A stretch of 63,872 bases of DNA, filler included, from Rhabdomonas costata (GCA_019059605.1; 18 parts of 18 records of this genome joined end to end with filler, not necessarily neighbours in it); one strand, 5' to 3'. Positions 3,544-49,290 are shown, numbered from the whole stretch's first letter. A program made the numbers and translations. Notes: generated by a model from the sequence alone, not told the origin.

Positions 3544-4778
3544 GTTGTGTGTGGTAACCGATAGTTGTGGTAACACAATAATGCCTTGAGACCATTGTCA
3601 CAACTTGACTTGAGGCTTTCCTATATGACTTTTTGAACGTTCACGTAAAATATGCCACTCTCGAAATGACTTTATTTTTTGCAAGGAGGTTGGGTTAACT
3701 TTGCGTGCTTCGTTGAGGAGTGTTTTAGCAGCTGAAAACTACATATGGCTGGGAACCGGACAGCATTCGTTTAGGAAGGAAAGTTTGAGGCGCGGCGGCA
3801 GGGGCGGCAAGGTGAACTGAGGGACCTTTAACGACTTTTTTCAGACAATGCTTCCATTGGAAAATTGCTACTAATGGTAACCATCACCAACACCACCCCC
3901 AACCTCGGAGCCCTGGAACCTAAACTGGACGGACCCATGGATGACCGATGCATAACTAAAGCAGTGGGGAAGCAAAGCTTCAGAATGACTGAAAAAAGGG
4001 TAGGCAAGAATGGAAGGCAGGGGGAAACCAGTGATAGCAGAAAGAAGAATCAAGTAGAATTGATGCGGGGAAGGAAGCCCTTCTGCCTCAAACGGACCTG
4101 CATTACATGACTGACAGTTGAAAGTTCCATCGTCCTTCAATCGCGCGTCGAATCGTCACTATTTCACCACCCCGGCATTTTTGGATGATCCTTGCGTGCG
4201 GAAAGGGGACAGAAACCAGCCGCACGTGACGGTTAGCTTCAATGTTGTCATGTGCAGGTTTGTTTTTACTGAAGACGACCCCTTTTGCTCTTTGTTTCGG
4301 GTGAGACGAAAGCAAACACCAGAGAAAAAGAAGGTGATTAAAAATTGACACATATGCACTCAAGTGTTCGCACTCCTCTCTATCAGCAATCTGACTGTTT
4401 GTTTGATCAATCAATCGAGCAGTCAATAACCGATCATTGAATGACCCAAATTTAGCTTAGATGCACCCATACCGGGCATCTCAAATTATCACCTACATAC
4501 TAGTGAAAAGGAAAGAGACGCAGTTTCGTCTTCCCTCAGCATGGCTGCTTCCTCGCAAGCATCCTGGATAAAATTCCTCTTTGGTTGTCAAGCTTTAAGA
4601 AAAGAAAACTTTCCAGTTTTTGTTTTTTCAAGTATGAAGCGTGAGTGCTATGGGCAAATCTGCGGTTGTGCGGGGTGCCCGTTGGTAGCAATTGGCAGCA
4701 AATAATGTCTTTGTACGACTCGATTTCACACGTCACTTTCAGCGCCAGCACCTCCGGCTGAAGGTTGCCGATGCACAC

Positions 4779-5406
4779 CTGGGGGTCGGACTTGGTTCTT
4801 GCTAAGCCACCGGGTCATCTCCCTCTTGCTAGTGATGTTCGTGCCAAGCAGGATGTTTACCGTGTCGATGTTCACCGGAATGGGCACCACATTGCCGTCC
4901 ACCCGGCCCACTACGCGGTGGTGGTACGGCACCCACCCCGAAAACTGCTGCAAGTACTCCCACACTTCCGCGTGCTTGGTGTGGAACAGGTGCGCCCCGT
5001 AGAGGTTCACCAGGACGTCCGTCTCAGGGTCGAGGTAATCGAAGCAATTGCCACCGATGTGAGGCCGCCGCTCAATTACAAGCACCGTCTTTCCAAGCAC
5101 ACGGGCGTACCGGTCAGCCAACACCGCTCCGGAAAGTCCTGCCCCAACAACTACGATGTTGGGAGAGATATCAGGGGGCACGCTGTGGTGCAGGCGAAGC
5201 CCAGGAAGGTCTTCGGGGTGGGTGCGGAGCCTGCGCAGCAACCTAGGGACGTAGTCAAACTCCCGCAGCGGGGGCGGAGTGCGGGAAGGTTGGGGCTCGT
5301 GAGAGGGCTGCACAGCGGGCGGTTCAGAGAAGCCCCCGAAGAAAATCGCCAGCGCAAAAAGGTTCATCAGCACAGCAAAACCGATCCCAAGAGTGGCGAT
5401 ATTCAT
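4779..5406 (-). CDS. glf: UDP-galactopyranose mutase (bacterial Glf-type) with N-terminal signal anchor, exon 1 (partial gene)
   Basis: FAD Rossmann motif VVVGAGLSG, then IERRPHIGGNCFDY, YGAHLFHT, YHHRV and PIPVNIDT. Hydrophobic N-terminus plus a Pro-rich stem. The exon ends at CCAG|GTGTGC (4779/4778). Downstream exons were not found in this contig. Confidence 0.88.
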
Positions 5407-7209
5407 GGTATTCTAAAACGTAGAGCAAAAACGACATGTAAGGGCGCTGCGCGCCCTGACGCCGATCTAAGGGGTCCCGAACCGAAACGAAGCGGTTTGC
5501 CATCTTCGTATTTCGTTCCGATTGCTGGCACAGCCACGTCAGGTGTCACTCGCGCGAATGACGCTATACGACGCTGTACGGGTGAACAACACTTTTCGGC
5601 CTATGTCGGTGAACCCCGTTGGAAAAGGATCAAAAACTGGAATATCGGCTGAAAATATTCGGTAGTCACAAGCCTCCAAACCGAGTATTTTTGTTCCATG
5701 AGCCCGAAAGAAGGGGATTAGGTCACCTTCTCCGACTTCAACTCGACGTTTGCTTCGCTTTTTAGTCAGAAAGCAGGGGTTTGTGGGGTTTGGGGGGTTT
5801 GGGCGTCTTAAAAAACTCGCCAAGTCGACCGCCCATGAAATTGAAATTTCTCATCAGGGGGAACGTGGTTCGAAGATACAAATCGTTGATTTTTGTGAGC
5901 GACCTTTTCCATGAGATAGCATATTAACCTGACATACACACATACTCGTATATCAACCCTGCACTTACTACGTTCTTACCTCAGTTGTTTTCGTTTCGGA
6001 AACAAATTCAGAGAAACCGAGTAAAGAACCCCAAACAAGTGCACCCACACCAAGCGAACATAGCACAAACAGAGCCCGCAGCTCTCTTGAGGGCACCAAT
6101 CGTCCTCTTTGCTTTCTCTCTCACGATTTGTGATGGTGTGTCATCGCCGCTTCGCGTCAAACCATCACAAATATTCCTCGGGTGTCACCGCCATCTTCAT
6201 TGCAAACATGCGAAATCGCATCATTGGACAGCACATATTACGGCTGACTCTCCGCTGATTCCAAAGAACATTCTCGCAACTAAGACTATCACTGGATTTT
6301 CCCTACTTTCCATGACCCAGGTCAGCATATGTGCTTTTCTAAAACAAAGGGCCAAACGCACACCAGCACACAAAGTACACTGTTCCCAAAAAACAGTGAC
6401 AGCGGCAAGTGCTCACATTGCACCGCACACACGCACACACACGCACACACACAGAAAGGCACACAATGGCGGGGGGGACATTTGTGAGTACGTTCTCATG
6501 CCGTTGAGGATACGCGAGCAGAAGCCTTGGAAAGAGCTCAAAAGACAATGCACGGAAGCACAACGCAGGCATGCGTGCAGTTGTCATCTCTAATGGCTTC
6601 CCTGGCTGAATCCTGCAGAACTGTCCTCTCACGGGGTAAAAAAAGCTTGTGGGGGGATTTGAACTCTGTGATGCGCTCGGGCACCATCGAGAGTTGGCGC
6701 GCGCCACGCAATGTTCCAGTTCCAAGAACCGAAGCAAGACAGCAAACACACACACACATCTCTCAACAACCTAAATGTTTAGGGGGATCGCGCGGGGCCA
6801 CTGGGCGCCGCAAAGCAAAAACGAACCAACCACGACATCAGTATTTGCAAATCTCCCCATGCGGAACGCAAGTAACTCAGCTAAACTCACATTCATTCCT
6901 GCAACCTCCATACTCAATGCATCCCAGGGCAACCATCTGTCCTTGATGAGTTCCACATCTTCGGCGATCATGAAAAGAACACACACANNNNNNNNNNNNN
7001 NNNNNNNNNNNNNNNNNNNNNNNNNNNNNNNTTAATTAATTAANNNNNNNNNNNNNNNNNNNNNNNNNNNNNNNNNNNNNNNNNNNNTTTTGTTTGGCTA
7101 TTTTTGAGCTTTTCAGGGCCGTTATTGGTCAATTTTGGGGTCCTCCTGGAGACTTCACAAACGAGAAAGGGAAGCTCACGGTGCAACTATAATATCAGGG
7201 GGTCGACAC

Positions 7210-10819: not shown

Positions 10820-12262
10820 TCATACCCTCCAGCTTACGAACACTCCGGGGTGCGGGTGAGTCCAGTTGTTTTTCTTCATGTACTCAAAGTAGGCCGGAAT
10901 GTCCACCACAAAATAGTTGTGCACAAAGACGCGGTCCCTCCATTTGGTGAGGTCGAGCCATTCTGCCTCGTCCGCAAACAGCCCAAAGGCCTTCAGCCAC
11001 ATTTCCTGGTCTGTCCAACGGTATGACCACAAGCCCCGAGGAAAGATGTTGAAGAACCGAGCCATGTCCAAGAACTCCGGGGACTGGTGGTAACCCAGCC
11101 ACCCTCCAAAGAAGTTGCCATGTGCCCCAAGGCTTTCGTTGAGGAACCATGACCTTGAGGCCGCCGCAGGGCGCAGGGTGTGCATGCACCTCTCGCTTTG
11201 CAGAGCCCCGTAGGTCTCCACCATAAGCCCAATATTAACCGTACATGCTGCCAGCAGCGGGATGATCCCACTGTGAAATATCAAGGCCCGGTTCTCTGCC
11301 ATTGCGGCAACGATACTCTGGGGCAAGGGAGCCAAAAACTGAATGTCTGTGTCGACCTTCAGCCAAAAGTCAAAGAGGTCCAGAATTCTAAGGAAGAAGA
11401 GCTGGTGAGTGTAAAACCGGTTGGTCTGAACATAGCTGTACAACGCCATCTGAGGGACACACCCTGAACGAATTCTGTATCTTTTCATTATATTCCGAGC
11501 GAACCGCTTCCGCCCCATATCGTGGACCCACAGCGGGGCATCGAGCCAGAGAGAACCAATGAGTACATAGCTGGTGTTTGCCGATCCAGCGGGGCAATAA
11601 TTGTACAATGTATAGCCTTCATCCAGCTCCGAAACATTCCCATAAGGATGGTGTCTTGCCGACACTCCCTCTGGGGATTCCCAAGGAACAGGACGAAGCC
11701 CCAGCTTCAGCACAATATAAGCCACAGAGATTCGGGCCTCACGGTCCAAGAGAATGAGCAAAGGCAGCCTGTGTGGGGTCAATAGGTGCACGTGCCACGA
11801 GGGCCAGCGGAGCGCAAAGATGTTCAGCTGAGCCTGAGCGTTAAACTTCGAGCTGCCCTGACCTCCCAGCAACAGTACGACCAGCCCCTCGGCAGATCGG
11901 GGATCCACCCACGTCCGCGCTGGAGTGAAGTGAAAGGGCTCCGGCGGCCCCACAATCCGGGCAGCAGAGAACGGGGCCCTCGGAAATTCGCACTGCGCCT
12001 TTTGCCGGGAGGGCCCCAGCAGACTTCGATTGCGAAACACCCGACCCGCGAACCGGTAGACTGGAAAGCTGCTGCTGTCTGCAGCAGTGGTAGTGACAGC
12101 CGGGACTGGGGCCAATTCTGTGGAGGGGACCTCAAGTTTGGGCAAGACCATCGGGTCGCCCTCTTCCGCGGGAGCGTGCCAAAACGTAAACCACACCAGC
12201 GAGATCGCGAAAGACACCAGAAAGCTGCGCAAAGCCGCAACTCGCGAGAAGAGCACAGCCAT
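10820..12262 (-). CDS. GT15/Kre2-like glycosyltransferase (alpha-1,2-mannosyltransferase-like), intronless type II membrane protein
   Basis: N-terminal TM (FLVSFAISLVWFTFW), YVQTNRFYTHQLF, FDFWLKVDTD (DxD motif), GNFFGG and GLWSYRWTDQ. The likely ATG at 12262 is preceded directly by CAG. Confidence 0.72.
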   Translation of the reverse strand: MAVLFSRVAALRSFLVSFAISLVWFTFWHAPAEEGDPMVLPKLEVPSTELAPVPAVTTTAADSSSFPVYRFAGRVFRNRSLLGPSRQKAQCEFPRAPFSAARIVGPPEPFHFTPARTWVDPRSAEGLVVLLLGGQGSSKFNAQAQLNIFALRWPSWHVHLLTPHRLPLLILLDREARISVAYIVLKLGLRPVPWESPEGVSARHHPYGNVSELDEGYTLYNYCPAGSANTSYVLIGSLWLDAPLWVHDMGRKRFARNIMKRYRIRSGCVPQMALYSYVQTNRFYTHQLFFLRILDLFDFWLKVDTDIQFLAPLPQSIVAAMAENRALIFHSGIIPLLAACTVNIGLMVETYGALQSERCMHTLRPAAASRSWFLNESLGAHGNFFGGWLGYHQSPEFLDMARFFNIFPRGLWSYRWTDQEMWLKAFGLFADEAEWLDLTKWRDRVFVHNYFVVDIPAYFEYMKKNNWTHPHPGVFVSWRV

Positions 12263-14660
12263 CTGTCTCGCAAAAAGGGTAAACCTGCTGTAAAACCAAA
12301 CAGAACGTATATATCCTATGAAGCTGCTGTGGAACGTGAGCATGCGGCAACAAGCGGTAATAAGGGTACATTTTGCACCGTATTTTCATTTCCGAATTCT
12401 CATGGATCCCTCCCTCCCGGACTTTTTCGGACCGACCGGTTGTCACTGCGAATTTCCAGATTACCATGGAAAAGTTATAGCCGCACCAGCATTGCCGGTG
12501 CTGTTTTATTAACTCGACGTTGTTGTTTCCTTGACCAAACACCCATAGAAAGGTCACGGACAGTACACTAATTTAACTTGGTACCTTCCAATTAACATGA
12601 CTCAAAATAAAAAAATAGAATCGATTGCAACAAAAAAAGGCAGAGGATAAAGATTAACATGGAGAAATCGCGCGTCAATGTATTCCTATGAAACCTTTTC
12701 ACTTTCACCTCATTGCCGAAAAGCTTCTTGGCGGTTTATTATCACACCTCGATTGGTACAATTCAACCCCCTGCACTGAAAAAGAGGCACCACATTTCAA
12801 CCTTATCGCCAACAACCAATTCACTGGCCCTCTTAGCTGCCCGTGTCCCCGAAAATTCAGGGAATCCCTGCTGCAACGCGAGCAGAACGTACAGTGATGG
12901 TGCATATCGGAACCACTCACATCAGTTGGGCCACATCCTCGACAATTTCCAGCACCCGCTGCCCCAGAGCGTCCTCAGTGAGTTCCCAACTCACCCTCAC
13001 TCTCCAGACCGGGGCCATGATTCCCTGACCAAACTCAGTGCCCTTCCGCACACACACAGGGCTCCCAGCAACAAGAGTACTAGTGGTTCTTCCGCTCTCA
13101 AGCAGTTCAACTGTGACCGACTCCAGCTGAAGACTACTCTGAAAAATAAATCAACACAATAAGAAAGGATTCTTCCCTGCATCAAACAGAGACCACTCTG
13201 CACTTCCCTCCATCGACCAATTGGAGCAGCGAAACGAGAGCGCGGTCATGCAAATGTCAGAGGTGAATGGTTGCTGAAAGAACAATGTATCCAAAGTGCA
13301 TTAGGTGTGGTGCATGATGACTGTATGTTTGGGTGGGGGGAGAAGAGCAGAGCGACACACCTCGGCCTGGGCTATCGTGACGAATGGGAGGTACCTTGAC
13401 AGGCTGCGGTGCAGGGCGCTGAGAAGACTCTCAGGGGCGCCCTCTTCAGAGGAACAAGCATATTCCCTGAATCACCCACACATACATTTCTGCTGCAAAT
13501 GAATGCAGCACAATTTCGGTCCAACAACGTAAACCCTATGAAATTCTGTGACACCTTTCGCTACCAACAGACTGCGTCTAACCAGAAAACATCTGGGCCA
13601 CAAGAGTTAATTCAAGATTCAGAATGACGCGTGGTTCGGATTCGATGGCGCACATCCTAATTTTGACAGAAAGAGTAATAAAGGTCACCTCGCAACCCAC
13701 AACCGGCTATACAAAGCGCAAAAAGCGAAGCAATTTTCGAGAATGGGCACCGAGCTATCGGTCGACCAACAACGGGATAGATGGACAAAGCTCACCGTTC
13801 CACAGAAAGCCTGACGGTGTGCACCGGGATCCCGAGCTTGTGCGAGGCCTCCTCCGCACTCAGCACAGAGATCTTGGACCGAGCACAAAGCTGTGCACAG
13901 AAGGTTGCCGGGCGAATGAGCCCTCGCAGATAATCCCAGAATCCTACCCCTTCAACGCCAAGGCGAGAATCTTCGACATTTGCGCGTTGCGGCATGATCA
14001 ACTAAACTACCGATTCCCTCGTGTACAATGAACCAATGAATGCGGAGTGCGAAACAAGAACAAAAACANNNNNNNNNNNNNNNNNNNNNNNNNNNNNNNN
14101 NNNNNNNNNNNNTTAATTAATTAANNNNNNNNNNNNNNNNNNNNNNNNNNNNNNNNNNNNNNNNNNNNGTGGGTGGGTTCGTGCAGACTCAGGTGGGCCT
14201 CCCAGCTGGACCCTATTGTCAGTGAGCGTGACCGTGCCGCAGTCGCTCGACAGCGCCACCCCCGTTGAAACGCCCCCCTCGCTGAATGCCCTGCCCGGCC
14301 TGCTGGAGGACATGGCAGGGCCCCTCCAGGGGCTGCTTTCCTTGGGTATCTTCCACTGCCTAGGGTTTTCGCGGGAGGGTGGGGGGTGATGTTTAGTGGC
14401 AGCAATTTTTCACCTATTACACAGACACTAAAAAAAAGGGGGAGGGGGTAACGGTTGTGGTTACGGGTAACGGCAGAAAACTGACTGGGATTAGGAAACT
14501 GTTGCCAACACCCTCGAAAAAATGACTTTGTTTCAGGGTTAAAGGTTTTCGGAACAGTTCGCCAGTGCGACCTGAATGGTAAATTCTGGTTAGCACGTCA
14601 ATTGGGCCCAGCAGTGACTTTTTATCAGCACCTCTTGAACTGTTTGTTGTCTTTTTGCAG

Positions 14661-21267: not shown

Positions 21268-24200
21268 CAGGGTGTTCACTCCATCGATTAAGTCGAACCC
21301 GCCATGAACGTTACTTTTCAACCACCTGCGGTCAAAATCAAAAAAAAAAGCAACGCGCGTCTGGAAACAAAGCGGATGCTCTATTTAATAATCAGTGGCA
21401 GAAAAGAGCTCTTCAAACCGAATGTGAAGCAGGGTTGTGGGGCATTCAGTCTCGACTTCGGACGTGATCTCGGTGACCTGGTAAATGTTGCAGACACCTG
21501 CGGGGAAGCACCAGGCAGTGGATTGTGTGGGTGGAAGGACACACAAGCTTCCAGTGATTTCCCCCACGGTGCCGCACCTTGATTGTGCTTGGACACGGTC
21601 TTGAGATTTTCTGAAACTTTCTCCTCACCATCAACAATGTACCTGAATCCCACAGAGCAGCACACAGTACCACAAAAATAGCAGCAAGCAAAGGGCAAAA
21701 AGCCCCCAGTGCGCTGTGTGGCGAAAAAAGAGGGAAAGTGGTGCGAGGTGCAGGGCTGAGTCGAAGCAGGTCTGGGGTCTTTGCAAAAAACAGCAGCCTC
21801 CCGAAACGCTCCGGGGGGCCGGTCCATGGTCCATAGGGTCAGAAATTTCTAAACTTCATCCTCAGCCAGTTGTGTGCCCCCAGGCGGCTTTTGCGCCGCT
21901 TCTTGTCGTGTATCCGATGTCGGGCACCCCCACCACACGCATATATATACAAAGTGGTAATCCCGTCCCCATAAAAACCTGTACTCGTACTCGCCGGGAG
22001 GCAGGTACAGTGTAATCTGGAAGAAAACCGCTTCTCCCTCAGTGCACCGCTCCATCTCCAAAGGTTCTTTCCACTGAACACAACCAAATGGAAAAAAACC
22101 ATTGCCCGCCGCGCCAGTATACAAGAATCAAAAACGAGAACTCTGGTGAAAATCAAGAGTGGTTGAGCTGCTTAGAATCATCTGGAAGGATCCCTAAAGC
22201 AACGAGTGAAACAATTGCTGAGGAATTTTGGGATGCTGCACCTCTGCATACCTTGTTCATGCTTCCCACCACAAGCACTTGCCGTGCCTCACCCTGAACC
22301 GTGAGCTCCACCGGAAAGATCTGGTTCGAGTGAAATTCTGATAGACCCGCCAAAAAAAAGTCAACAGTCAAACCTCCAGTCTCCCTGCCATTTTATAAGA
22401 CGTCAAAGATGTCGGAAGAGCATACTGTTTTGGCGGCGCTCCTGAAGTGGGCGTCTGTCTTGCAGGCACACTTCCAGAGTAATGGGATCACCCTCCACTC
22501 GGCTTCCTGCAAAAAAAATGGAACCACAAAAGTTCCAGCCCCCCGTCTCACAAAATCGTTCCAAAGCAAAGGGTTTTAAAATGAAAACAGCACCGCGCGC
22601 GCACTTCTGCTTGTCAATGTACATTTTCCCTTCCCACCGCAAAACGAAGAAGCACTCCAAGTTTTCCATTTCGGCAGTGAACGATAATGCAAATCCTAAC
22701 ATGGTGACTGTCCCGAAGGAGCGGGAAAATGACGTTGCAACAACCCTTCACCCAGTGTTGCAGGAGCAAGATTTCAAGAACTCAAAATCCTCTTCCCTCA
22801 ATAGCAGCGGCGCGAAACCAGGGTGCAAAGTTGCACCCAGTCAGAGTACAATGGTGGTTCGGGGCGAGGAAGAGGGAGGTGGGGAAAAAGGAAACCAACG
22901 GTTCGCTCAAGCATGATGACGGGCAGCAGAAAAATGCACATGGCTGAAACGGCGATTGCCAGCGGGAGAAACGGGGGCGTTTCCTTTTCAAGGAGAGGTG
23001 CGCGCGAGGAGATAAAAGCAGCAAACCTGTCATTGCGATGTGATGAAGCATCAGGGAATGGTTCCGTGTGGTCTCCTTTTGCTTTTCGAGCAAAAAAGCC
23101 TCCGCGCGATCTGATACATTTGTCAAGGAATATGGCAATGACACCCGTCCACACACAACAAACAAATATAGTCACCAATGGCATGAAAACGAACCTTGGA
23201 CGTTCTTTCCGGCTTCTGCGACCAGGCCTTCGGTGATGCAAAATGCAACCTTGCCACGCAGTTGCTTAGCATCCTCGCGCTCGCCGGGGGTAACCTCTGT
23301 GTAACGGACAGCGCACTATTTGCTTACAAACGCTTGGCATTTACTGGGAAAGGAACATTACACACTATCAAGCAAAACTTCAGCACATTCACTCCTCCTC
23401 CTCATTTGTCCAATTTCAAAAACATAATTGCGAAGGAAAAAAGACCGAGAATGCACCTTGTCCGTCTAGTCTGTGCAAATTCGGAGAACTTACCGCGACC
23501 GCAAGTTTGCGATAATCTTCGGCATCACAAAGAGGATTGCCGTGGACGTTCAGAATCTGAAAAACAAAAACGTGGAATACCAACCACATTGAATTCACAA
23601 GCTGGTAAGCTGGTGCAGGAGCAGTGAGGGCAAGTGGCGATACGTAAAGAGACGGCAAGAATGGGAAAAACTTGAAGTCCGGGATGAGGTTGTTGTTCAC
23701 GCTGAGCACCCGCAAGCTCGGAAGCATTCCCAGCCCCTCAAAAGACGCAATCCGATTGCAGCTCACGCACAGGGTCTGTAAAGTTGCGAGCGATCAGAAG
23801 GCTGCAAATGTGCGATGAAATGACTTCTGATCAAAACCAATGCCCTGCCCCCCCGCCCAATACCGATGACCAAATTTGTATTATTCTCCTTCAACAACGG
23901 CCGGGTTACGTCAACCGTTAACACTGAGTGAATTCTAGTGATCGTCACGACCAGCAAAGGCTGATATTGAAGCGGGTTTCTGATGCATGTCACTCAATGA
24001 TGGGAAACGCCTTGACACGGGGGTTCAGGGGATCGTGCACAAATGGGTTTTTTGGGGAAGTTTGGGTTTGAAGTTTGAGTTGGGTTGGGTTGGAATTTTT
24101 GGCTTCTTCTTGTTCTCAGCTTCAATTAGATCCAAGTGCGACAAAAAATAGACAAGGAAGAACACCTCCAATTCATTAAGATCGTGGAAACCCTGAAAGC

Positions 24201-31754: not shown

Positions 31755-31934
31755 CCAACANNNNNNNNNNNNNNNNNNNNNNNNNNNNNNNNNNNNNNNN
31801 NNNNTTAATTAATTAANNNNNNNNNNNNNNNNNNNNNNNNNNNNNNNNNNNNNNNNNNNNGGGGGTTGGTGGGCAATCATTTGTGGGTTTTGATGGTCTT
31901 GTTTTTGACTCCTAGATTTTTTTCAAGCAACAAG

Positions 31935-33130
31935 ATGAAGACTCCCAGCTTGGTGTCTTCTGGGGTTCTGGAACTCTCCATGTTTGCCTTGTTGGGGTGG
32001 CTCCTGGCGGCATTTCACATTCGGAGCGGAGGTCAGGATCCTGACCAGGGCCTCGCTGGGACGTCTGTGGGACCATTTGTGAGCTACCGGAAGGTTGTCC
32101 AGGCCCATATTGATGGCATTCTCATGGGGATTATTCAGATGCTGATTGGGTCTGTGCTTGCCCCGTACATCACGGGGACGACGTCAGCGCTGCTGATCGC
32201 TGGCAGCTGGGCCAATCCCTGCAAGTTCCGCTCAGCAGATCCCCCCCGTTCTCAGCTTTAACCAAATTTTCAGAATTGGATTTGACAGCTAGATTCAGGA
32301 TTGTCGGGGTAGTGGGCTTTGATTTGCTATAGCAGAAAGAGCACAAATATCTGGACGACAGATATAACAAATATCGTAATGAAGCGAGCAGGCGGCGAAG
32401 TGTCGTCGAAATGTGTGGGGGGAGCTGAGAAGTTTCGCAATTCTGACCCCAAGGACCGGCCACGCAGCGTTTCGGGAGGCCTGTTGTATTACACAAGACC
32501 CCAGGCCTGCTTCGGCTTAGCCCTCTTCCCCCCAAGTTTTGCAATTAATTATGCACGAGGAGACGTTGGCGTTGGGCGAATGGGATGGAATAGAGAGGAA
32601 ATGGTTCAATGGGAGCCTGAGACTTTGCTTTTGCATCATGGCCAGAGAAAAACTTGCACCACACACAGACCACATGAAGATTTAAGTACGGCACCTCGGC
32701 ACAGGACCTTACTTAGGTGAGTGATTGTTATCGAGTTAACACCCACGCGCGAAGAGAATGCAGTGTTACTTATGATGGGACAAGCAGCTGGAATCGAAAA
32801 GAATTCATTTTTACATGTCAACGTAAACATACGTATGAAGACGTTACGTGTGTTATAAAATATTGTTGTTATCAATTTTGCTGCTGGAATAGTTGCACGC
32901 GAACCAACTGTCGGTTTTATTGGGAGGGGGGTGCTGCGGTTAAGTAGCTGAGTTCTGGGAGGTGATCTTCTGAGCCGGGGCCATTCCCCCGTCTCTTCTT
33001 GGTCCCGGCTGTCTCACCGTCAGCGCCTAAGAAGACCTGGATGAAGGGGCTCTCTACGCTCTCTTTTCTCACCACCTCGGCAGCCTACATTCGACTGTGC
33101 GAGTCATACTTCTCGTCTGGGCCGCGTTGA
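31935..33130 (+). CDS. Small multi-pass membrane protein, styrene-oxide-isomerase (StyC)-like or bacterial-like, 2 exons (31935-32220 and about 32991-33130)
   Basis: TM helices with KVVQAHIDGILMG (His within a TM) and LLIAGSWANP. Exon 2 reads (C)LFLVPAVSPSAPKKTWMKGLSTLSFLTTSAAY...*. The family assignment is by remembered motif. Confidence 0.6.
32221..32990 (+). other. Candidate nonconventional (euglenid-type) or intermediate intron with complementary ends
   Basis: 5' end GCAAGT. The 3' end is ...ATTCCCCC with no AG if the LFLVPA helix is coding. 32228-32263 pairs with 32938-32978. An alternative AG acceptor lies at 33023. Confidence 0.5.
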
Positions 33131-33585
33131 GTTAGGGTAGCAGCATATGCCGCACCCATTGACGTGTGCGATGCGTTCTCTGTGTGTTTTGAAGGAGCTT
33201 TATGGCGATTTGTTCATGCAGGTTAATAGCTTGCTCAGTTGGCTTGCTCATTTGACAGGCCATTCTATATTTTCTGCGATGCGCAAATAGTGTGGTGCTA
33301 ACCTCTGCGGTGAACGTTTTGTGCTGATGGCTCTTAGGGCTGAGTGGAAGGGGGTTCCTGATGGTAGGAAAGAGCAGCCGAATCGTTGTTAACCCCTCCA
33401 AAAAATGAATTCAAGAATCTTGAATGAACCTTATAATTCAGACCCCCCAGCGCTCTGCTTTCGCCCACCACCATCCTCCGCCACCCTTGCCTGTGTTCCT
33501 GGTCGCTCCTGTGCGCTGCTGTTCCTCCCCATTATTCTCCCCATTGCATCGCAGCCGCAAGTGCTTTTTGTGTGCCTTGATGTAG

Positions 33586-35148
33586 CCAAAACGCCCCCAC
33601 CACCACCCGAAAGAAACCCCTATTTCTGGACATCTGGTGGAAATCTTATTACCGACAGCGCGTCCAAAAATTGCTTTCCGATTTGCCCGATCCACCACCT
33701 CTTGGGACTGAAGAAAGATTGTTTTCGTTGATGGGCGATTGGTATGCTCGTGCCTCCAGTGCTGCAATTCAAAGGACATGGGATACCAGCGAAAAGACTT
33801 CTTCAGACCTCAATGAAACTTTCTCCTCCAATCCACTTTCGCACTTCTTAGGTCTTTCTTTTGGCAAAGTTTGTGTGTACCCTCTGGTGGATGTTTGCTT
33901 TGCTCTGATGGTTCGGAGAGGGGGCTCCGTGCCTCTGGACCTCTTTGGGCTGAGGCCAAGTTGATCTTGAAAGTAGCCTGCGCGAATGAGCGTCCCGGAG
34001 TTGAGGGCAGGCACCCCTGGCCCCAGCCCGCTTCGGGCGGCTCGAATGTACCAATCGCTGAAATTGCTAGGGTGCTGCAAATGCCCTTTGGCCAATCTCC
34101 GCCACCCACTCCCCCCAGTGTGCAGTCTAGAAATGTGACTGGGGCATCGCCATCACATCGCCGTCGCAAAGAAAAATATCGGGTAAAGGGTTTTCATTTC
34201 CCTTGAATCACCTGCTTTTCAACTGATTTAGTGCATTCGTCGCGTGCTGGTCAGAATATGAATGATATGTTGTTTTACAAAGAGTTCATTTCACTGCAAA
34301 AAGGAGCACTTCCGGACCTACCGCCTGGAAGAATGTCCCAAAACCAAGTATACGATTCCGAAATCTCTGCAACTGAGGTAACTGTTCTTTCATACGCTGC
34401 CCTGACCAAGTAATTAATTTCATGTGGGACTTATCTTAGTTGTTTTGCTGTCATTCCCGAAATCCGAAAGGCTGCAGACTGTCCTTTTTGGTGATGCTGG
34501 GTGTAGGTCAAGAAACAAGCTTCTCGCCGTGGACACTGACGATCCCTTTGATGAAGACTACGAGATGCTTCCTCCTGAGCTTGGGTTTGAGGTTCCCCGG
34601 CCCTTGTCCAGAGCGGCGGAACAGTCGCAAGGGTTACTGTCACCCTCCTCCTCATTTATATTCAATAGTGGACAGGGCTCAAGCCGGGATTTTGCGTTTT
34701 TGTTCCTCTGGAACATCCGTGGCTCGGCGCACACAGTGGAAAGAAGGGAAAGGGCTCGAAGTGTATGACATCTGGCACAAGAAAGGCGCTCTTAGGTTAC
34801 ACGCTAGTACCAAAATATGAAATTGTATCCTTTTTGTTTTCTGGCAAGCGCGTCCACAAATGGGTTCATCGTTTTCGACGACACCTGCAGATCTGCATAA
34901 CATCGGCCATTTCGGTTGACACCCGAGATTATTCGAGATTATGAATTTCTCTTTTCGTTTTGCGGGCTGGGAAGTTGTTGGATGACTTGCCTCAGACTCG
35001 CAAAGAAGGCCCGTCAAGTGTCCTCCCGGCCTGACTTCGAGGCTGGCTTTGACAAGCTTGAGTTCGTGCCAATCACACGCCACCGCGCCTTGACCGACCC
35101 TGGCAGGCCACTGTCTCTTGCCCAAATGAAGGCGTACTACAGAACCTG
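33586..35148 (+). CDS. Unknown multi-exon protein (about 6 exons), partial
   Basis: A chain of in-phase GT-AG-bounded blocks, e.g. LFLDIWWKSYYRQRVQ..., NMNDMLFYKEF..., WKEGKGLEVYDIWHKKGALR|LAKKARQV...QMKAYYRT. No family recognised. Confidence 0.5.
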
Positions 35149-35420
35149 GTACGTCACAGATTCCTCACCACATCGCCTTTCGTGCGCTGAGCCTCCTAAG
35201 AAATTCACATTTTTTTGTGGTGGCTACCAACTGGTTTGATGGTGCCGATTTGGAGTGCCCAAGACTGGGTAATTCCAATATCTCACTTAAAAACNNNNNN
35301 NNNNNNNNNNNNNNNNNNNNNNNNNNNNNNNNNNNNNNTTAATTAATTAANNNNNNNNNNNNNNNNNNNNNNNNNNNNNNNNNNNNNNNNNNNNTTGTGG
35401 TGTGACGAAGTAGTTGGGGG

Positions 35421-38400
35421 ATGTCGGTATGGGCTGGAAGGGCTGCCTATCTGGATCCAGGTAGCCAGCCCTTCCAGCCCATACCGACATCCCCCAACTA
35501 CTTCGTCTCACCAGTGACCGTGACTCCGGCGGCGCCTCAAGTCACAGGTCAGCTTCTGCAAATCCATTTCCGCATCTGGGCCACGGGAGGGAGCAAGGGC
35601 AACGAGCAGCTTCGGGTTCCCGCGCAATGGGTTACGGGTTCTTTGCGATGGTCGCCCTTCCCGAATGAGGTCAGCGCGGTCGACTGTCCCATGCAGTCCC
35701 TGAACTATGTCTGCTCTTTGGCGGGTACAGTGGCCTTCATTCCCACTGCCGCAACGCACGTGTACCTGTTCTTGATTCCCAACACCACTGTTGTGGGAAG
35801 TTACCCTGCCATCTTCACCTTTTCCAGCGGCTACTTCCAAGATTCACGGTGGATCGCCAGTGCGGCGGATATCTTCATGCAGGGTCTTGTGGATCCCATT
35901 TCCAGCCCGGTGGTGGTCTCCCCTGACGCCGTGGTAAATGCCTCCAGCCAGGAAACGGTGGAATTGCGGTATACAGTGGCCTTCTCTGGACCAGCCTACA
36001 ATCCACAGGTTTGGGTCCCCAGTGGTGCCGTCTCTGCGGGCTCCCTGACCTGGTTGAGCTCCTACTCCTCCTCGCCCATTGACTGTCCGCAGAGCAATGA
36101 CGGAACCTACTTAATATGCTCCTACGGTGGAGTCATCCCCCTGCTGCCTTCTGCACCGATGCAATTGATCCTGCGCTTCACTCCCGCGCTAGCTTTAGCT
36201 GGGGCAATGCCTGCCTTGACTTGGACGGCAGATTCTTTCCTCCCCGTGCTGCACTATCCTCCGCTCTATCAAATTCCCAACTTTGTGCTGGACAATCTGG
36301 TGGTGGTGCAGCCTGGGACAACTACTCTGCCTGGAACGCCCGTTGTCGTAAACGTGGTGTACCATACAACATCGAATCCAACGGCCCCTAACGACAACTT
36401 TGACCTGCAGCTGCGCTTGCCTAGAACTGCTTTGCACGGTATTGTGGGCCTTCACTGGGGATATAGCTCCAACGTCGCTGAAGCGCAACCCTGCTTCGAG
36501 TACAATGAGTGGAACACAACTGTGCGCTACTCGGGGGAGGTGGTCTGCACCGAGTTGGTGTCCTCGCCCCAGCCCCTAGAGCTGTACCTGTTTTTTACTC
36601 CAAGCCTGCGTTGGGTGGGGCAAATCCCGTCTATGCGGCTCTCTGGCCCGTTGTTTGCAGACCTTCTTGTGTCTCCAGGGCTAACCCAGCTGGGGCTTTT
36701 TGACCACATTGTGCTGCGAAGCGGCAGTTTGACTGCCGGGAATCTTGGGATGCTGCACTTCTTCATTAACAGCACCGGGCCCTCCTCTGGAGGAGAAACA
36801 GTGCAGCTCATGCTCCGCACTGACCAGCAGGTGGGCTGGGGCTCCGTCCCGGACTTCACTAGGCAGGTCGCCAACTGTGTCCCGGGCGAATCAATTTGCG
36901 ACAGCGCGGGTTGCTTTGCAGTGCAGCGGTGTGATATCAGCTCGGTTATCTCGTTCACCCAACAAGGAGTTGAGCTGTTCATGTGGGTGGTACCCTCCAC
37001 TACCGTTTCTGGCAGTGTGATTGTGAGCTTTTCGGCCACGAACTTTCAGACAGGATCTTACAACATTTCCGTGCGTGGAGTCTTTTCCATGGTCTCTGAT
37101 GTTTCTATTCGGAATCTTGAGGACCGCGATATTGTGGTTCTTCCCGCCCATTTGCCGATCATGGTGAGTTTCTCTTTTGGCTCAAGCGCCCCTATCTTAG
37201 GTCCTGTCACGATTGTCATCCCAAGTAGTGTAGCCGAGCAGGTTACCTGGACTTCATCCATGACAGGCCAGTGGGCAACTTGTCCCTTCGACCCAGCTAG
37301 CTTGCTTCTCGTGTGCGACATATCCACTGGCTTCTTTTCGGGAAGCTTCTCCTTTGGCCAACTTCTGGTCTCCAGCCTTACTCAGCTTCAGCTCCAGATT
37401 GTGCCCAATGCCACCTTCTCTGGACTCATCGGAAATTCTCTGCAGATTCTTTCCCCGGGATATGCCCCAACCCCAGTGTATATCGGCTTCACTTCTCTGG
37501 CCTACCTGGACCCCCGGGACCCGTCACTTGTGCAACCTGACCCTGCCCAAGCCCAGGCGATGCTAACGATGCCCATCATTCGTCCCAGCACCCCCGTTGC
37601 TTCTGGGGAGCTTGTCCGCGCAGGATTCAGTCTCAACCTTACCTCCAGTTCTTCAGGCAGTGCCGTGGTGTACCTCAATGCAAGCCTGGTTTCCAACACC
37701 GTCAAGTGGGGGCGCACCAAGGACGGCGTGAGTTCGAAGTTCTGTCCCATCGTAGATATAAACGGTTCATATGTTGTGTGCGACTTGAGCGAGTTGCAGT
37801 TTGTAGCTTACGAGGCTCAGCCTGTCTGGCTGTTCTTCGTCCCAGCGGTACAGGAAGGCGTGGCATCGTTTACGGCTGTCTTTTCGGGACAAAACTGGCA
37901 GCCCAGTGTAAGCGAGTTCAGCTTCGTGGTCTTCGGTGACATTCAGCCTGAAGTTCAGCCGGTGCATGTATTTCCTCAAACAGTCATTGCCGGCTTGCAC
38001 CAACTCGTCGCTGTTGAGCTTCTCGTGGCGGCAAGTGGCTTCACGTTCGGAAACGAGACCATTTCGATGGCAAGCTACGCGGTTTGGAACGACAATTTCT
38101 ACTTCGGTGGCCTTTCCTCAGACTTCCAGCTGGCGACCTTGTGTGCCCCTGGGTCGCCCACGATGCTCTCGTGCAGCTTGAATATGACGTTATCACCCTC
38201 ACCCGTTCCTGTGTACGTCTTCTTTGTTCCCAGTGAGTCTGTTGTCGGAATGTACACGTTCCCAATCTACTTTTCGGCCAACGGATTTTTCACCGGTGTC
38301 GCCGTGCCTAACGTCGTGGTTTTGGGGACCACTATTGTCAATGCACTGGTTTCGGTGCTGGTGCGGCCGTTCCAGCAGGCGACTGTGGGCCTCTCTGTCC

Positions 38401-38824
38401 AATCCTTGGGAACCTCAAGCGGGGGAGAGGCTTTGCTAGTGAACTCCCAGTTCATCAACGCCACCACTGGAGTCTCCTGGTCTCTTCACAACAGCTCAGC
38501 TTACGCCCGAAGCCGTTGCCCCCTTCGAAGGCAACCAGGCTTGTTTGTGTGTAACTTGTCCGTGCTGCATCTGAGTCCCACGCCCTTGGCCGTGTACCTA
38601 TTCCTCACTCCCATGCACCAATTCGTAGGCCCTGTTCCCATCTTGGTCCGTACACTGGCGAGTCAGTTTGAAGACACGGTGACGTCCGTGAATGTCACTG
38701 TGGTGAGCGCTCTGCAGCAAATCTCTCCTGCACCTGTGTTCACTGGCGCTGTCCTCCCTGTGGTGCAGACCCTTGTGCCCACCCTTCAGCTTATCACCAC
38801 CAACATCAACCAACACAACCCACA
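35421..38824 (+). CDS. Large intronless protein of 8 tandem 125-145-aa beta-rich repeats (probable surface or secreted protein), partial, probably truncated at both ends
   Basis: The ORF of >1130 codons fills the contig. Repeats share a degenerate V.P...G...W...C(P)...C.L...P..(L/V)YLF..P...G pattern. Very low Lys content and many NxS/T sequons. Confidence 0.85.
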
Positions 38825-47402: not shown

Positions 47403-49290
47403 GTGCGGCGTGTCCACGGCTTCCGAATGTTCCATATGCGCAACCCTTGGGGGCAGTTCGAATGGAATGGAGACTGGGGCGACAAAAGCCCGCTGTGGAC
47501 CCAGCACGCCAACGTTGCTCGAGACGTATGCGTTGTTTCTCGTGTTATTCCTTTTTTGTTTCTTGTGCAAGTGTGCAAGTCCAGTAATCTGAGCGCATGC
47601 AATGCGGAGAGAAGCATCGTCGCCCCCCCCCCCGAAAGCGACGTGTTCACTAACTTTCAAAGTTGATAATTTAGGAGAGTTGATGTCTGTAGTGCCTCGA
47701 AAACGTTTATTTTCTATGCTGTGGTTTTTTGAAAGAAGAGATCCCAAAATATCGACGGCTGGATGTGGAAGGGGGATCGGCCCGCAGCAGTGGACATCCG
47801 GTGTATTAGGTCAGCCCCTCCCCCTTCTTATTGCGCCACTATAATAAATGTATTTCTATTGTAATAATGTTTATAATTGCGTCGTTATTAATTAGTGACC
47901 GAGAATTCAAAACAATGAAAAAACACAGTCCAGTGTTCAAAGTCCGGCGCACACAACAGCCGCACAGATGCAAAGGGAAGAGAACGTGAGTGCGGGATTG
48001 GTGACAGTTTGTTATATGTGCGACTGTGTAAAATTAAATTGAGGCGCTTTCTAACAGCGGGGCTATTATTTTGCACGACCAAAAATAGCGTCCCCATTTT
48101 TTTTGCGTCATAAATTTTTTACTGTGGGGTGCGTCTGGCGTGGATCGTAAAAGGGCAGTCGTGAGCGCAGCGCGGTGGTCCCAGATCCAAGGACTTTTCC
48201 TGTGGTGCAAGAAAATGTTCCTTATTATTACAATAGCGCCGCTTTTACATTGAGATTCTTTTTGATAGCGAGGCTAATATTTTTGTACAACTTGGTAATA
48301 GCGCCTGTATTAAATTGTGTGATAATACTAGCGGCGCTATTAAATTGTGTGATAGTAATAGCGGCGCTATTAAATTGTGACACTTAATAACAGTGTCACT
48401 ATATATGTAGGGGGGGCCTAACCGAATAAGCCCTTGGACATCAGGGCTGGAAAAAAGGAAAACGTCAACTTTCAAAATTTGCCTCCTCGACACCTCCGCA
48501 AAATATAACTTGACTTTGTGTACTTTTGCAACCACTTTCGACCACTGCTTTTTTCTACACAATTCGCACTTTTGTCACTTCGTGATACCACAACACCAAG
48601 GATCGCACTGCAAGAGGAGACCGCGGGAGACCGCGCATGAGGGAGGGAGGGGGCAAAAAAAAAGAAACGGCACGGATACCATGGACAACACCGGAAAGCC
48701 AGGAGTGGGCGCAGAATGGCAAGAGGAGAAGTGGAGGAGGAGAGTGGAGGCTTGGTGCAAAAGATCCGAGAATTCAAGTCTGGCTTGTTGATAAAATTGG
48801 GGTGGGGGTGGAACTGTCAGATGGCACCGCTGCTGAAGGAGGCAGAATCCTCTTTATGCTTGCCCTTGATTGGGTTCTTGTAATGTCGACAAAATGGACC
48901 CGGAATGTGCAACTAAGAATGGGTTTTTCGCAACAGTCGAAATGGTAAGCCCACTGGCTCAAACACGGCCTACGTCCCATTTCCCTTCTATAGCTCAAGT
49001 TCACTGCGGCGGACGATGGGATGTTCTGGATGTGCTTGGAGGATGTCGTGCAGAACTTCCGCAGCTTTGACATCCTGGACCGCAGCCGTGGCACCCAGGA
49101 CATCATTCTGAACCTGCACGAGGAGCTGGGGCAGTGCCAGGGCCCTGTCGTGGGCTGCCTCACGGGCTGTGGGCGGTTCTGGTGCTGCTGCCAGGGCCTC
49201 ACGAAGCTGGTCTGCGACCACCAAAGCACAGGAGTCACCCGCGAGGGCGGCACATGCTGCTGCGGAACGTGCCTCGCCCCGAAGTGCTGA
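47403..49290 (+). CDS. Calpain-family cysteine protease, 3' exons 47403-47525 and 48994-49290
   Basis: MRNPWGQFEWNGDWGDKSPLW (catalytic Asn) and DDGMFWM. Cys-rich C-terminal tail, GT-AG intron, TGA stop. Confidence 0.9.
48295..48382 (+). repeat. ~30-bp tandem repeat x3 inside the calpain intron
   Basis: GTAATAGCGGCGCTATTAAATTGTGTGATA-like units. Confidence 0.8.

Follow-up and report, generated by a model that had tools for sequence, protein, structure and literature searches.

A probable nonconventional intron with paired ends and no terminal AG in a gene of Rhabdomonas costata

A short protein-coding gene of Rhabdomonas costata is interrupted by a 770-nt intervening sequence (32221-32990, plus strand) that starts with GC and ends with CC. 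It lies in a stretch of 63,872 bases (hereafter the window; GC content approximately 50%) made up of 18 separate contigs of about 3.4 kb with N44-TTAATTAATTAA-N44 linkers between them; because the contigs were concatenated in this way, genes that adjoin across a linker are unrelated. The contig carrying the gene occupies 31861-35294 and starts after such a linker. Exon 1 (31935-32220, plus strand) begins with the ATG at 31935 and contains 95 full codons (31935-32219) and the first base of codon 96, while exon 2 (32991-33130, plus strand) provides the last two bases of codon 96, 45 further codons and a TGA stop (33128-33130). Without splicing, the frame opened by this ATG reaches a stop at 32262-32264, 14 codons after residue 96. 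The gene product is probably a four-helix membrane protein of 141 aa.

The evidence for splicing comes from protein P0001 (141 aa; source name eukprot:RCo011552), the sole match obtained in a word-indexed search of 5.8 billion proteins, in which 16 candidates were scored. Going by the name alone, RCo would denote Rhabdomonas costata. The sole published R. costata protein set is described as having been predicted from a Trinity transcriptome, the genome being presented without gene prediction (PMC8219788). Since the published proteins are transcriptome-derived, P0001 stands for a transcript. The translation of 31935-32219 is identical to residues 1-95 of P0001 (95/95), and residues 97-141 are encoded by 32993-33127 (44/45 identical), as found both by tblastn and by separate translation of the pieces. 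The single difference is at residue 137, where P0001 has Leu and the window encodes Ser (TCG). Across the join P0001 reads ...GSWANP-C-LFLVPAVSPSAPKK..., where the residues after C begin LFLVPAVSP; this is exactly the sequence that had been proposed, from the DNA alone, for a join of 32220 to 32991 (hereafter the original prediction).

The position of the intron can be specified closely. Residue 96 (Cys) is formed either from T (32220) plus GT (32991-32992) or from TGC at 32220-32222, and P0001 does not separate a junction at 32220|32991, which yields the same mRNA as 32221|32992, from one at 32222|32993 (TGC|CTC). The intron may therefore be placed at 32221-32990, equivalently at 32222-32991 or alternatively at 32223-32992. 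All three placements excise 770 nt and leave a 3' end of CC, CG or GU, in no case AG, and in the preferred placement (32221-32990) the 5' end is GC, so the proposed GC start and lack of a terminal AG were both borne out by what P0001 skips. Judged by this protein, removal of the intron is shown and its borders are located within 2 nt. Immediately 5' of the ATG, at 31913-31934, the sequence reads ...CTCCTAG|ATTTTTTTCAAGCAACAAG, a pyrimidine run with AG that is a possible spliced-leader acceptor; the T-run here is similar to the 3' end of the spliced leader published for R. costata, a sequence that does not itself occur in the window at three or fewer mismatches.

Conservation of the protein across the join was assessed in its homologues. 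HMMER, run exhaustively over 1.84 billion representatives, retrieved 37 proteins at E ≤ 1e-3 (six at E ≤ 1e-10), and 21 of the 37 were aligned with P0001. The alignment of all 21 runs without a gap across the join, with the motif GSWxNPxLFLxxA; the LFLVPA segment is thus kept in the family rather than missing from it. Residues G90, N94, F98, A102, S120 and F121 are each at least 90% conserved (21 homologues plus P0001), and an unspliced gene would lose the conserved C-terminal half that contains the last four of these. No Pfam family was found for the two exon translations, P0001 and the 21 homologues, apart from a weak match to DUF2574 (E 0.095) in one of the 22 proteins scanned. The family, for which there is no Pfam model, is uncharacterised but widespread, its members including a predicted protein of Naegleria gruberi and a protein from a bacterial metagenome-assembled genome. 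An Atlas look-up returned 'hydroxylaminobenzene mutase' (score 0.89), which is a weak lead only.

The closest relatives found, P0002 and P0039, are 56-58% identical to P0001 and, at the protein level, continuous at the site of the R. costata intron. One homologue is represented by P0005/P0045 (its N-terminal half) and P0002/P0039 (its C-terminal half), from metagenome contigs of 5208 and 48,886 nt, and the halves appear to sit on the same two contigs. This homologue is split after codon 68, where read-through begins with Val (GTN). As it is uninterrupted at codon 96 but split after codon 68, intron positions differ between the two lineages. A metagenome scan for a contig encoding P0002 gave only six distant bacterial loci (L001-L006).

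The ends of the intron are complementary, as the original prediction had proposed. The 5' arm of the helix (32230-32271, plus strand) starts at intron position +10 and was detected in the minimum free energy (MFE) structures of the ends alone and of the whole intron, as well as by repeat search; the 3' arm (32927-32975, plus strand) ends 15 nt before the 3' junction. Repeat search identified inverted arms at 32230-32247/32958-32975 (18 nt, 83%) and 32241-32257/32946-32962 (17 nt, 76%). When only the ends are folded (32200-32275 plus 32925-33010; MFE -66.9 kcal/mol), 32230-32263 pairs with 32938-32975 (30 bp, bulged) and 32266-32271 pairs with 32927-32932 (6 bp more), giving a helix of 30-36 bp. 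The duplex between 32215-32274 and 32931-32996 has an energy of -51.6 kcal/mol, compared with -25.9 ± 7.8 kcal/mol for window pairs of the same geometry, and was equalled in stability by one of 3000 equally spaced window pairs and by none of 3000 shuffles. Folding of the whole 801 nt also includes the end pairing in its MFE structure, but the fold as a whole is no stabler than shuffled sequence (z -0.53; 5 of 20 shuffles fold as well).

A second helix, absent from the original prediction, joins the two exons. Its exon-1 arm (32202-32215, plus strand; encoding G-S-W-A-N) pairs with an exon-2 arm (32999-33013, plus strand; encoding L-V-P-A-V), the former being in both the whole and the ends-only MFE structures and the latter in the ends-only MFE structure. 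The energy of this duplex, -25.0 kcal/mol, compares with -9.3 ± 4.1 kcal/mol for the null and is reached by 7 of 5000 controls. The exon-2 arm is also complementary to the repeat copy at the intron's 3' end (32973-32983; 11 nt, 91%). Because the two helices flank the splice sites, both junctions lie face to face within one internal loop, whose 5' and 3' strands measure 14 and 23 nt. A bulge-helix-bulge geometry of the kind cut by tRNA endonuclease was rejected on account of these loop sizes. After splicing, the mRNA still contains the 14-bp hairpin, whose loop carries the exon junction. Since the exonic arms encode conserved residues, the exonic part of the inverted repeat was not brought by an insertion.

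These properties suggest, with moderate confidence, that 32221-32990 is a genuine euglenid nonconventional-class intron, intermediate/nonconventional by its borders, whose removal would be guided by structure with a geometry unlike the Euglena rule. The 3' border is not the AG of a GT/GC-AG intron, and the 30-36-bp helix and the exon-exon helix together form a stable structure joining the intron ends and the exon ends. In the preferred placement, pyrimidine|purine (Y|R) steps are found at both junctions (U|G and C|G) and the downstream exon opens with a purine. Nonconventional introns are reported to have the consensus Y|R...Y|R, with a purine first in the downstream exon in 55 of 55 introns (PMC4770533). 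The same source describes an intermediate/nonconventional subtype with one canonical border and stable secondary structure; here a 5' GC is combined with a non-AG 3' end and stable end pairing. What had been put forward as a hybrid, with a 5' GC and a stable structure, corresponds to a subtype already published. In the account of Milanowski et al. 2016 (PMC4770533), a 5' GT or GC in such introns results from selection for a 5' purine and not from kinship with spliceosomal introns.

In the pre-mRNA, the 14-bp exon-exon helix (32202-32215/32999-33013) and the imperfect intronic helix of 30-36 bp (32230-32271/32927-32975) would bracket the splice sites, so that the junctions U|G and C|G would face each other in a single internal loop. 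Excision would be performed by the euglenid machinery for nonconventional introns, which would find the sites by structure and not by an AG. The geometry used would differ from the N3-CAG/CTG-N5-6 rule of Euglena.

Comparison with the nonconventional introns of Euglena (Milanowski et al. 2014, 2016; Gao et al. 2024; Nomura et al. 2025) reveals many shared properties. In both there is no AG, a stem joins the ends of intron and exons, Y|R occurs at both junctions, the downstream exon begins with a purine, a direct repeat is present at the junctions, length is variable and there is no coding capacity. As a class, euglenid nonconventional introns leave the transcript later than conventional ones and are released as full-length RNA circles. 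The R. costata intron differs in that its helix starts at +10 and ends at -16, its core is not at +4..+6/-8..-6, its 3' end carries a C-rich tract and a code-compliant pair of sites (32230/32978) in its stem is unused.

Several of these differences, and some further observations, weigh against assigning the intron to the nonconventional class. The Euglena code is given as N3-CDG/CH'G-N5-6|R, with a CAG/CTG core at +4..+6/-8..-6 and spacers of exactly 3 and 5-6 nt, and splicing was lost in a Euglena knock-in when the 5' spacer was altered by 1 nt (PMC12501133). This core is missing here, +4..+6 and -8..-6 being AGU and AUU, not CAG and CUG. These triplets could form A-U, G-U and U-A, but their pairing probability is approximately 0 and forcing them to pair costs 9.4 kcal/mol. 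Relative to the junctions used, CAG is found at +13..+15 and CTG at -21..-19. The spacers, at 9 and 15 nt, depart from the rule. By contrast, the published intermediate/nonconventional cases have the CAG/CTG core in register (PMC4770533). By the terminal-pairing metric of Gao et al., in which the terminal 10 nt are joined by U7, the energy is 0.0 kcal/mol for all three placements. That class holds 131/4498 and 436/11,653 nonconventional introns of E. gracilis (2.9-3.7%), compared with 4075/11,527 GT-AG introns (35%; PMC11170887). The last 10 nt of the intron (CCATTCCCCC) are 9/10 pyrimidines, mostly C; nonconventional introns are said to be without a pyrimidine tract (PMC11282704), and a C-rich tract is reported for conventional introns. 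The 5' end, GCAAGU with G at +5, resembles a spliceosomal donor. Finally, the splice is deduced from a protein, and the mismatch at residue 137 means that the transcript behind P0001 may derive from another allele or copy of the gene.

The code-compliant stretch within the intron (32230-32978, plus strand) reads GCT-CAG ... CTG-AGCCGG followed by G, and its terminal 10 nt pair with an energy of -9.2 kcal/mol. The junctions used lie 9 and 12 nt outside this nested CAG/CTG pair. Splicing at 32230-32978 itself was rejected, as it is in frame but adds seven residues present neither in P0001 nor in any of the 21 homologues. Removal in two steps, of the nested intron and then of the remaining 21 nt, was also rejected; the remainder is too short for an intron, and no 148-aa form is present in the 90% cluster of P0001 (one member). 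It is tentatively proposed that the Rhabdomonas machinery cuts in the loop between the exon-exon and intronic helices and ignores the code-compliant pair 9 and 12 nt inward. Either the code would be lineage-specific or the intron would have a dual nature, its donor and tract being read by the spliceosome and its acceptor set by structure. Rhabdomonas is a primary osmotroph and is distant from Euglena.

A spliceosomal route, the hybrid of the original prediction, is rather doubtful. It supposes that a U2-type spliceosome uses GCAAGU as donor together with the C-rich tract, and that the helices place a non-AG acceptor (CC|G) beside that donor. The features observed that resemble spliceosomal ones are the G at +5 and the tract, with pyrimidines (mostly C) at 9 of the final 10 positions of the intron. 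Also in favour of this route are the unpaired terminal 10 nt, a state shared with 35% of GT-AG but only about 3% of nonconventional introns, and the Euglena nonconventional core being out of register; furthermore, removal of some introns by both routes is left open in PMC4770533. However, the literature covered contains no euglenid spliceosomal acceptor without AG, and the lack of AG at the 3' end excludes the conventional U2-type GC-AG class. Inspection of the last 50 nt of the intron by eye revealed no clear YTRAY branch motif. The identification of GCAAGT as a spliceosomal donor, made in the original prediction, is not supported by the donor consensus of E. gracilis, which is given as GTGTG and not GTAAGT, with only G+5 standing out in GC-AG introns (PMC11170887). 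In addition, exon 1 ends in U and the intron ends in C, giving the Y|R pattern rather than AG|G...AG|G, and introns of E. agilis with dual motifs are thought to be processed noncanonically (PMC12501133). No computed feature separates the spliceosomal from the nonconventional route.

An origin from a mobile element bears both on the history of the intron and on a further alternative. The near-direct repeat expected at both junctions was found, with a left, exonic copy GGGCCAATCCC (32209-32219, plus strand) and a right, intronic copy GGGCCATTCCC (32978-32988, plus strand) in the C-rich pyrimidine 3' end CCATTCCCCC (32981-32990). The copies match at 10 of 11 positions, a score equalled by 63 of 5000 control pairs. 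Their spacing is 769 nt and the deletion is 770 nt, so they are 1 nt out of register. Inside the intron is a dispersed repeat of about 128 nt (32409-32536, plus strand), which has a second copy at 21740-21870 (minus strand) in an unrelated contig (77.8% over 108 nt by blastn, E 4e-15; E 7e-34 and 4e-39 by nhmmer); a third, weak match is at 49039-49083 (E 0.016). As the sample is so small, the presence of a second copy suggests a dispersed element of high copy number. About 91 nt of the dispersed repeat is flanked by a 13-nt direct repeat, AAGTTTCGCAATT at 32430-32442 and AAGTTTTGCAATT at 32534-32546 (12/13). Since the left 13-nt copy lies within the shared repeat unit, this is probably not a target duplication.

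For the intron termini, blastn found no second copy in the window; only the internal stretch of about 128 nt recurs. Of four scanned open reading frames in or overlapping the intron, none matches Pfam at E ≤ 1. Rfam gave no match for the contig at E ≤ 1 nor for the whole window at the gathering threshold, and no tRNA was found. At 770 nt (< 1 kb), and without coding capacity by Pfam, the intron has the size and non-coding character of a miniature inverted-repeat transposable element (MITE). It does not have terminal inverted repeats with an exact target-site duplication, as the arms are set back from the 5' junction by 9 nt and from the 3' junction by 15 nt. In favour of a MITE origin are the inverted repeats near the ends, the 10/11 direct repeat at the junctions, the 770 nt without Pfam match, the recurring internal stretch and the fact that the closest relatives are intronless at the site. 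Counting against it are the single copy of the termini in the window, the subterminal position of the arms, the discrepancy of 769 versus 770 nt and the degenerate right repeat copy. From the sequence features alone, a MITE origin appears plausible. The stronger proposal, that the intron was recently derived from an inverted-repeat element, is not borne out, given the lack of a second terminus copy in the window, the subterminal arms (9 and 15 nt) and the imperfect, out-of-register repeat. The MITE hypothesis for nonconventional introns has been published (PMC3935182; PMC11282704).

Two more long-range imperfect inverted repeats were detected in the window, at 1786-1818/2102-2134 (33 nt, 85%, loop 283) and 19463-19504/19748-19791 (44 nt, 80%, loop 243). 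They may be other stem-loop introns or elements. Neither is similar to the termini of the 32221-32990 intron.

It is also conceivable, if improbable, that the 770 nt are an insertion (mobile or repair-derived) in one allele or recent paralogue, and that the transcript represented by P0001 came from an uninterrupted copy. The difference at residue 137 (TCG, Ser versus Leu) implies at least two versions of the sequence, P0002 and P0039 are continuous at the site, and the segment has inverted repeats as well as a direct repeat at the junctions and a dispersed repeat in its interior. However, removing one repeat copy together with the intervening segment (769 nt) would miss the observed frame, as the protein requires 770, and at the junction the true microhomology amounts to 1 nt. 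Unlike transposon ends, the inverted repeat is subterminal, and a degenerate right repeat copy combined with an exon 2 matching P0001 at 44/45 residues is ill-suited to a young insertion. Furthermore, Y|R...Y|R junctions and an exon-exon helix are typical of nonconventional introns.

An artefact, either template switching by reverse transcriptase across the hairpin or chimeric assembly arising from whole-genome amplification, is very unlikely. Template switching is classically associated with direct repeats next to a strong hairpin. The neighbouring contig ends with a 36-nt inverted repeat (94%), and the published R. costata draft was, as described, made from amplified DNA (PMC8219788). Against this, removal of exactly 770 nt restores a family-conserved protein that is ungapped in 21/21 homologues, the join is not in register with the direct repeat, and an insertion after which the sequence resumes at the next base needs two precise chimeric joints. 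The inverted repeat of the preceding contig (31651-31757) is a hairpin of 36-nt arms, 94% complementary, with a 35-nt loop; 3 nt separate it from the end of the contig, and it may have arisen naturally or as a whole-genome-amplification chimera.

An ordinary GC-AG intron (32221-33023) using the nearest downstream in-frame AG (33022-33023, plus strand) is hardly tenable and was rejected as the main form since, as the original prediction had argued, it would delete the helix, removing C-LFLVPAVSPSA with S at the new join, whereas P0001 is contiguous here and contains LFLVPAVSPSA, the homologues are ungapped, and the deleted F98 and A102 are at least 90% conserved.

The nonconventional reading also fits what has been reported from R. 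costata. Noncanonical borders supported by reads were described for 105 R. costata contigs, of which 26 were inspected and 7 gave putative nonconventional introns, with NODE_718 as an example (PMC8219788). The intron analysed here resembles them in species, as judged by the source name of P0001, and in the kind of evidence, a transcript compared with a contig; it may already be among those listed. The noncanonical introns of hemistasiid diplonemids are similarly without conserved terminal dinucleotides and have ends that pair, with a weaker tendency for pairing of the exon flanks (PMC12621601). They differ in being short (medians 37 and 91 nt) and in pairing within the terminal 9 nt, and belong to another lineage. 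Introners and other MITE-derived introns, for example those of Micromonas, are likewise short and non-coding, with inverted repeats near the ends and a duplication-like repeat at the junctions (PMC11282704). Introners differ in having many near-identical copies, terminal inverted repeats, exact target duplications and spliceosomal GT-AG splicing, while the R. costata intron has one copy of its termini in the window, repeats that are subterminal and degenerate, and no AG.

The sole genetically defined rule for removal of nonconventional introns is that of Euglena, which is strict on spacer length. A protein and family conservation together pin down the R. costata intron, whose junctions are outside a code-compliant pair, whose donor and tract look spliceosomal and whose flanking exons are paired. 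It is thus a natural test substrate for whether the rule is lineage-specific and whether 'intermediate' introns are served by one machinery or two. As one case, from a fragmented assembly, it introduces no new principle; on the nonconventional reading, it is a further example of the known euglenid nonconventional introns, with cut sites farther from the stem than in the Euglena rule. What the original prediction observed was confirmed, and its interpretation was partly supported.

Elsewhere in the window, few open frames look coding. Of the 191 open frames that reach 104 aa, 150 were scanned against Pfam, with matches only to NAD_binding_8 (4729-5412, minus strand) and LRR_4 (23419-23793, minus strand), and no protein carrying an RCo source name came up in two further protein searches. 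The region 4696-5175 (minus strand) is a single exon that codes for the N-terminal ~130-155 residues of a UDP-galactopyranose mutase of bacterial type (identity to homologues 55-62%; PDB match, E 1.6e-34). By tblastn with four UDP-galactopyranose mutase homologues, this single exon is on the contig and the rest of the gene is not. An open frame of 1139 codons (35406-38822, plus strand) fills a whole contig and has the strongest coding signal in the window, with no Pfam match at E ≤ 1e-5. A further open frame of 521 codons (10823-12385, minus strand) has no Pfam match, and its sole hit is P0038 (476 aa, 68% identical, E 6e-208), from a public contig of 2.1 kb.

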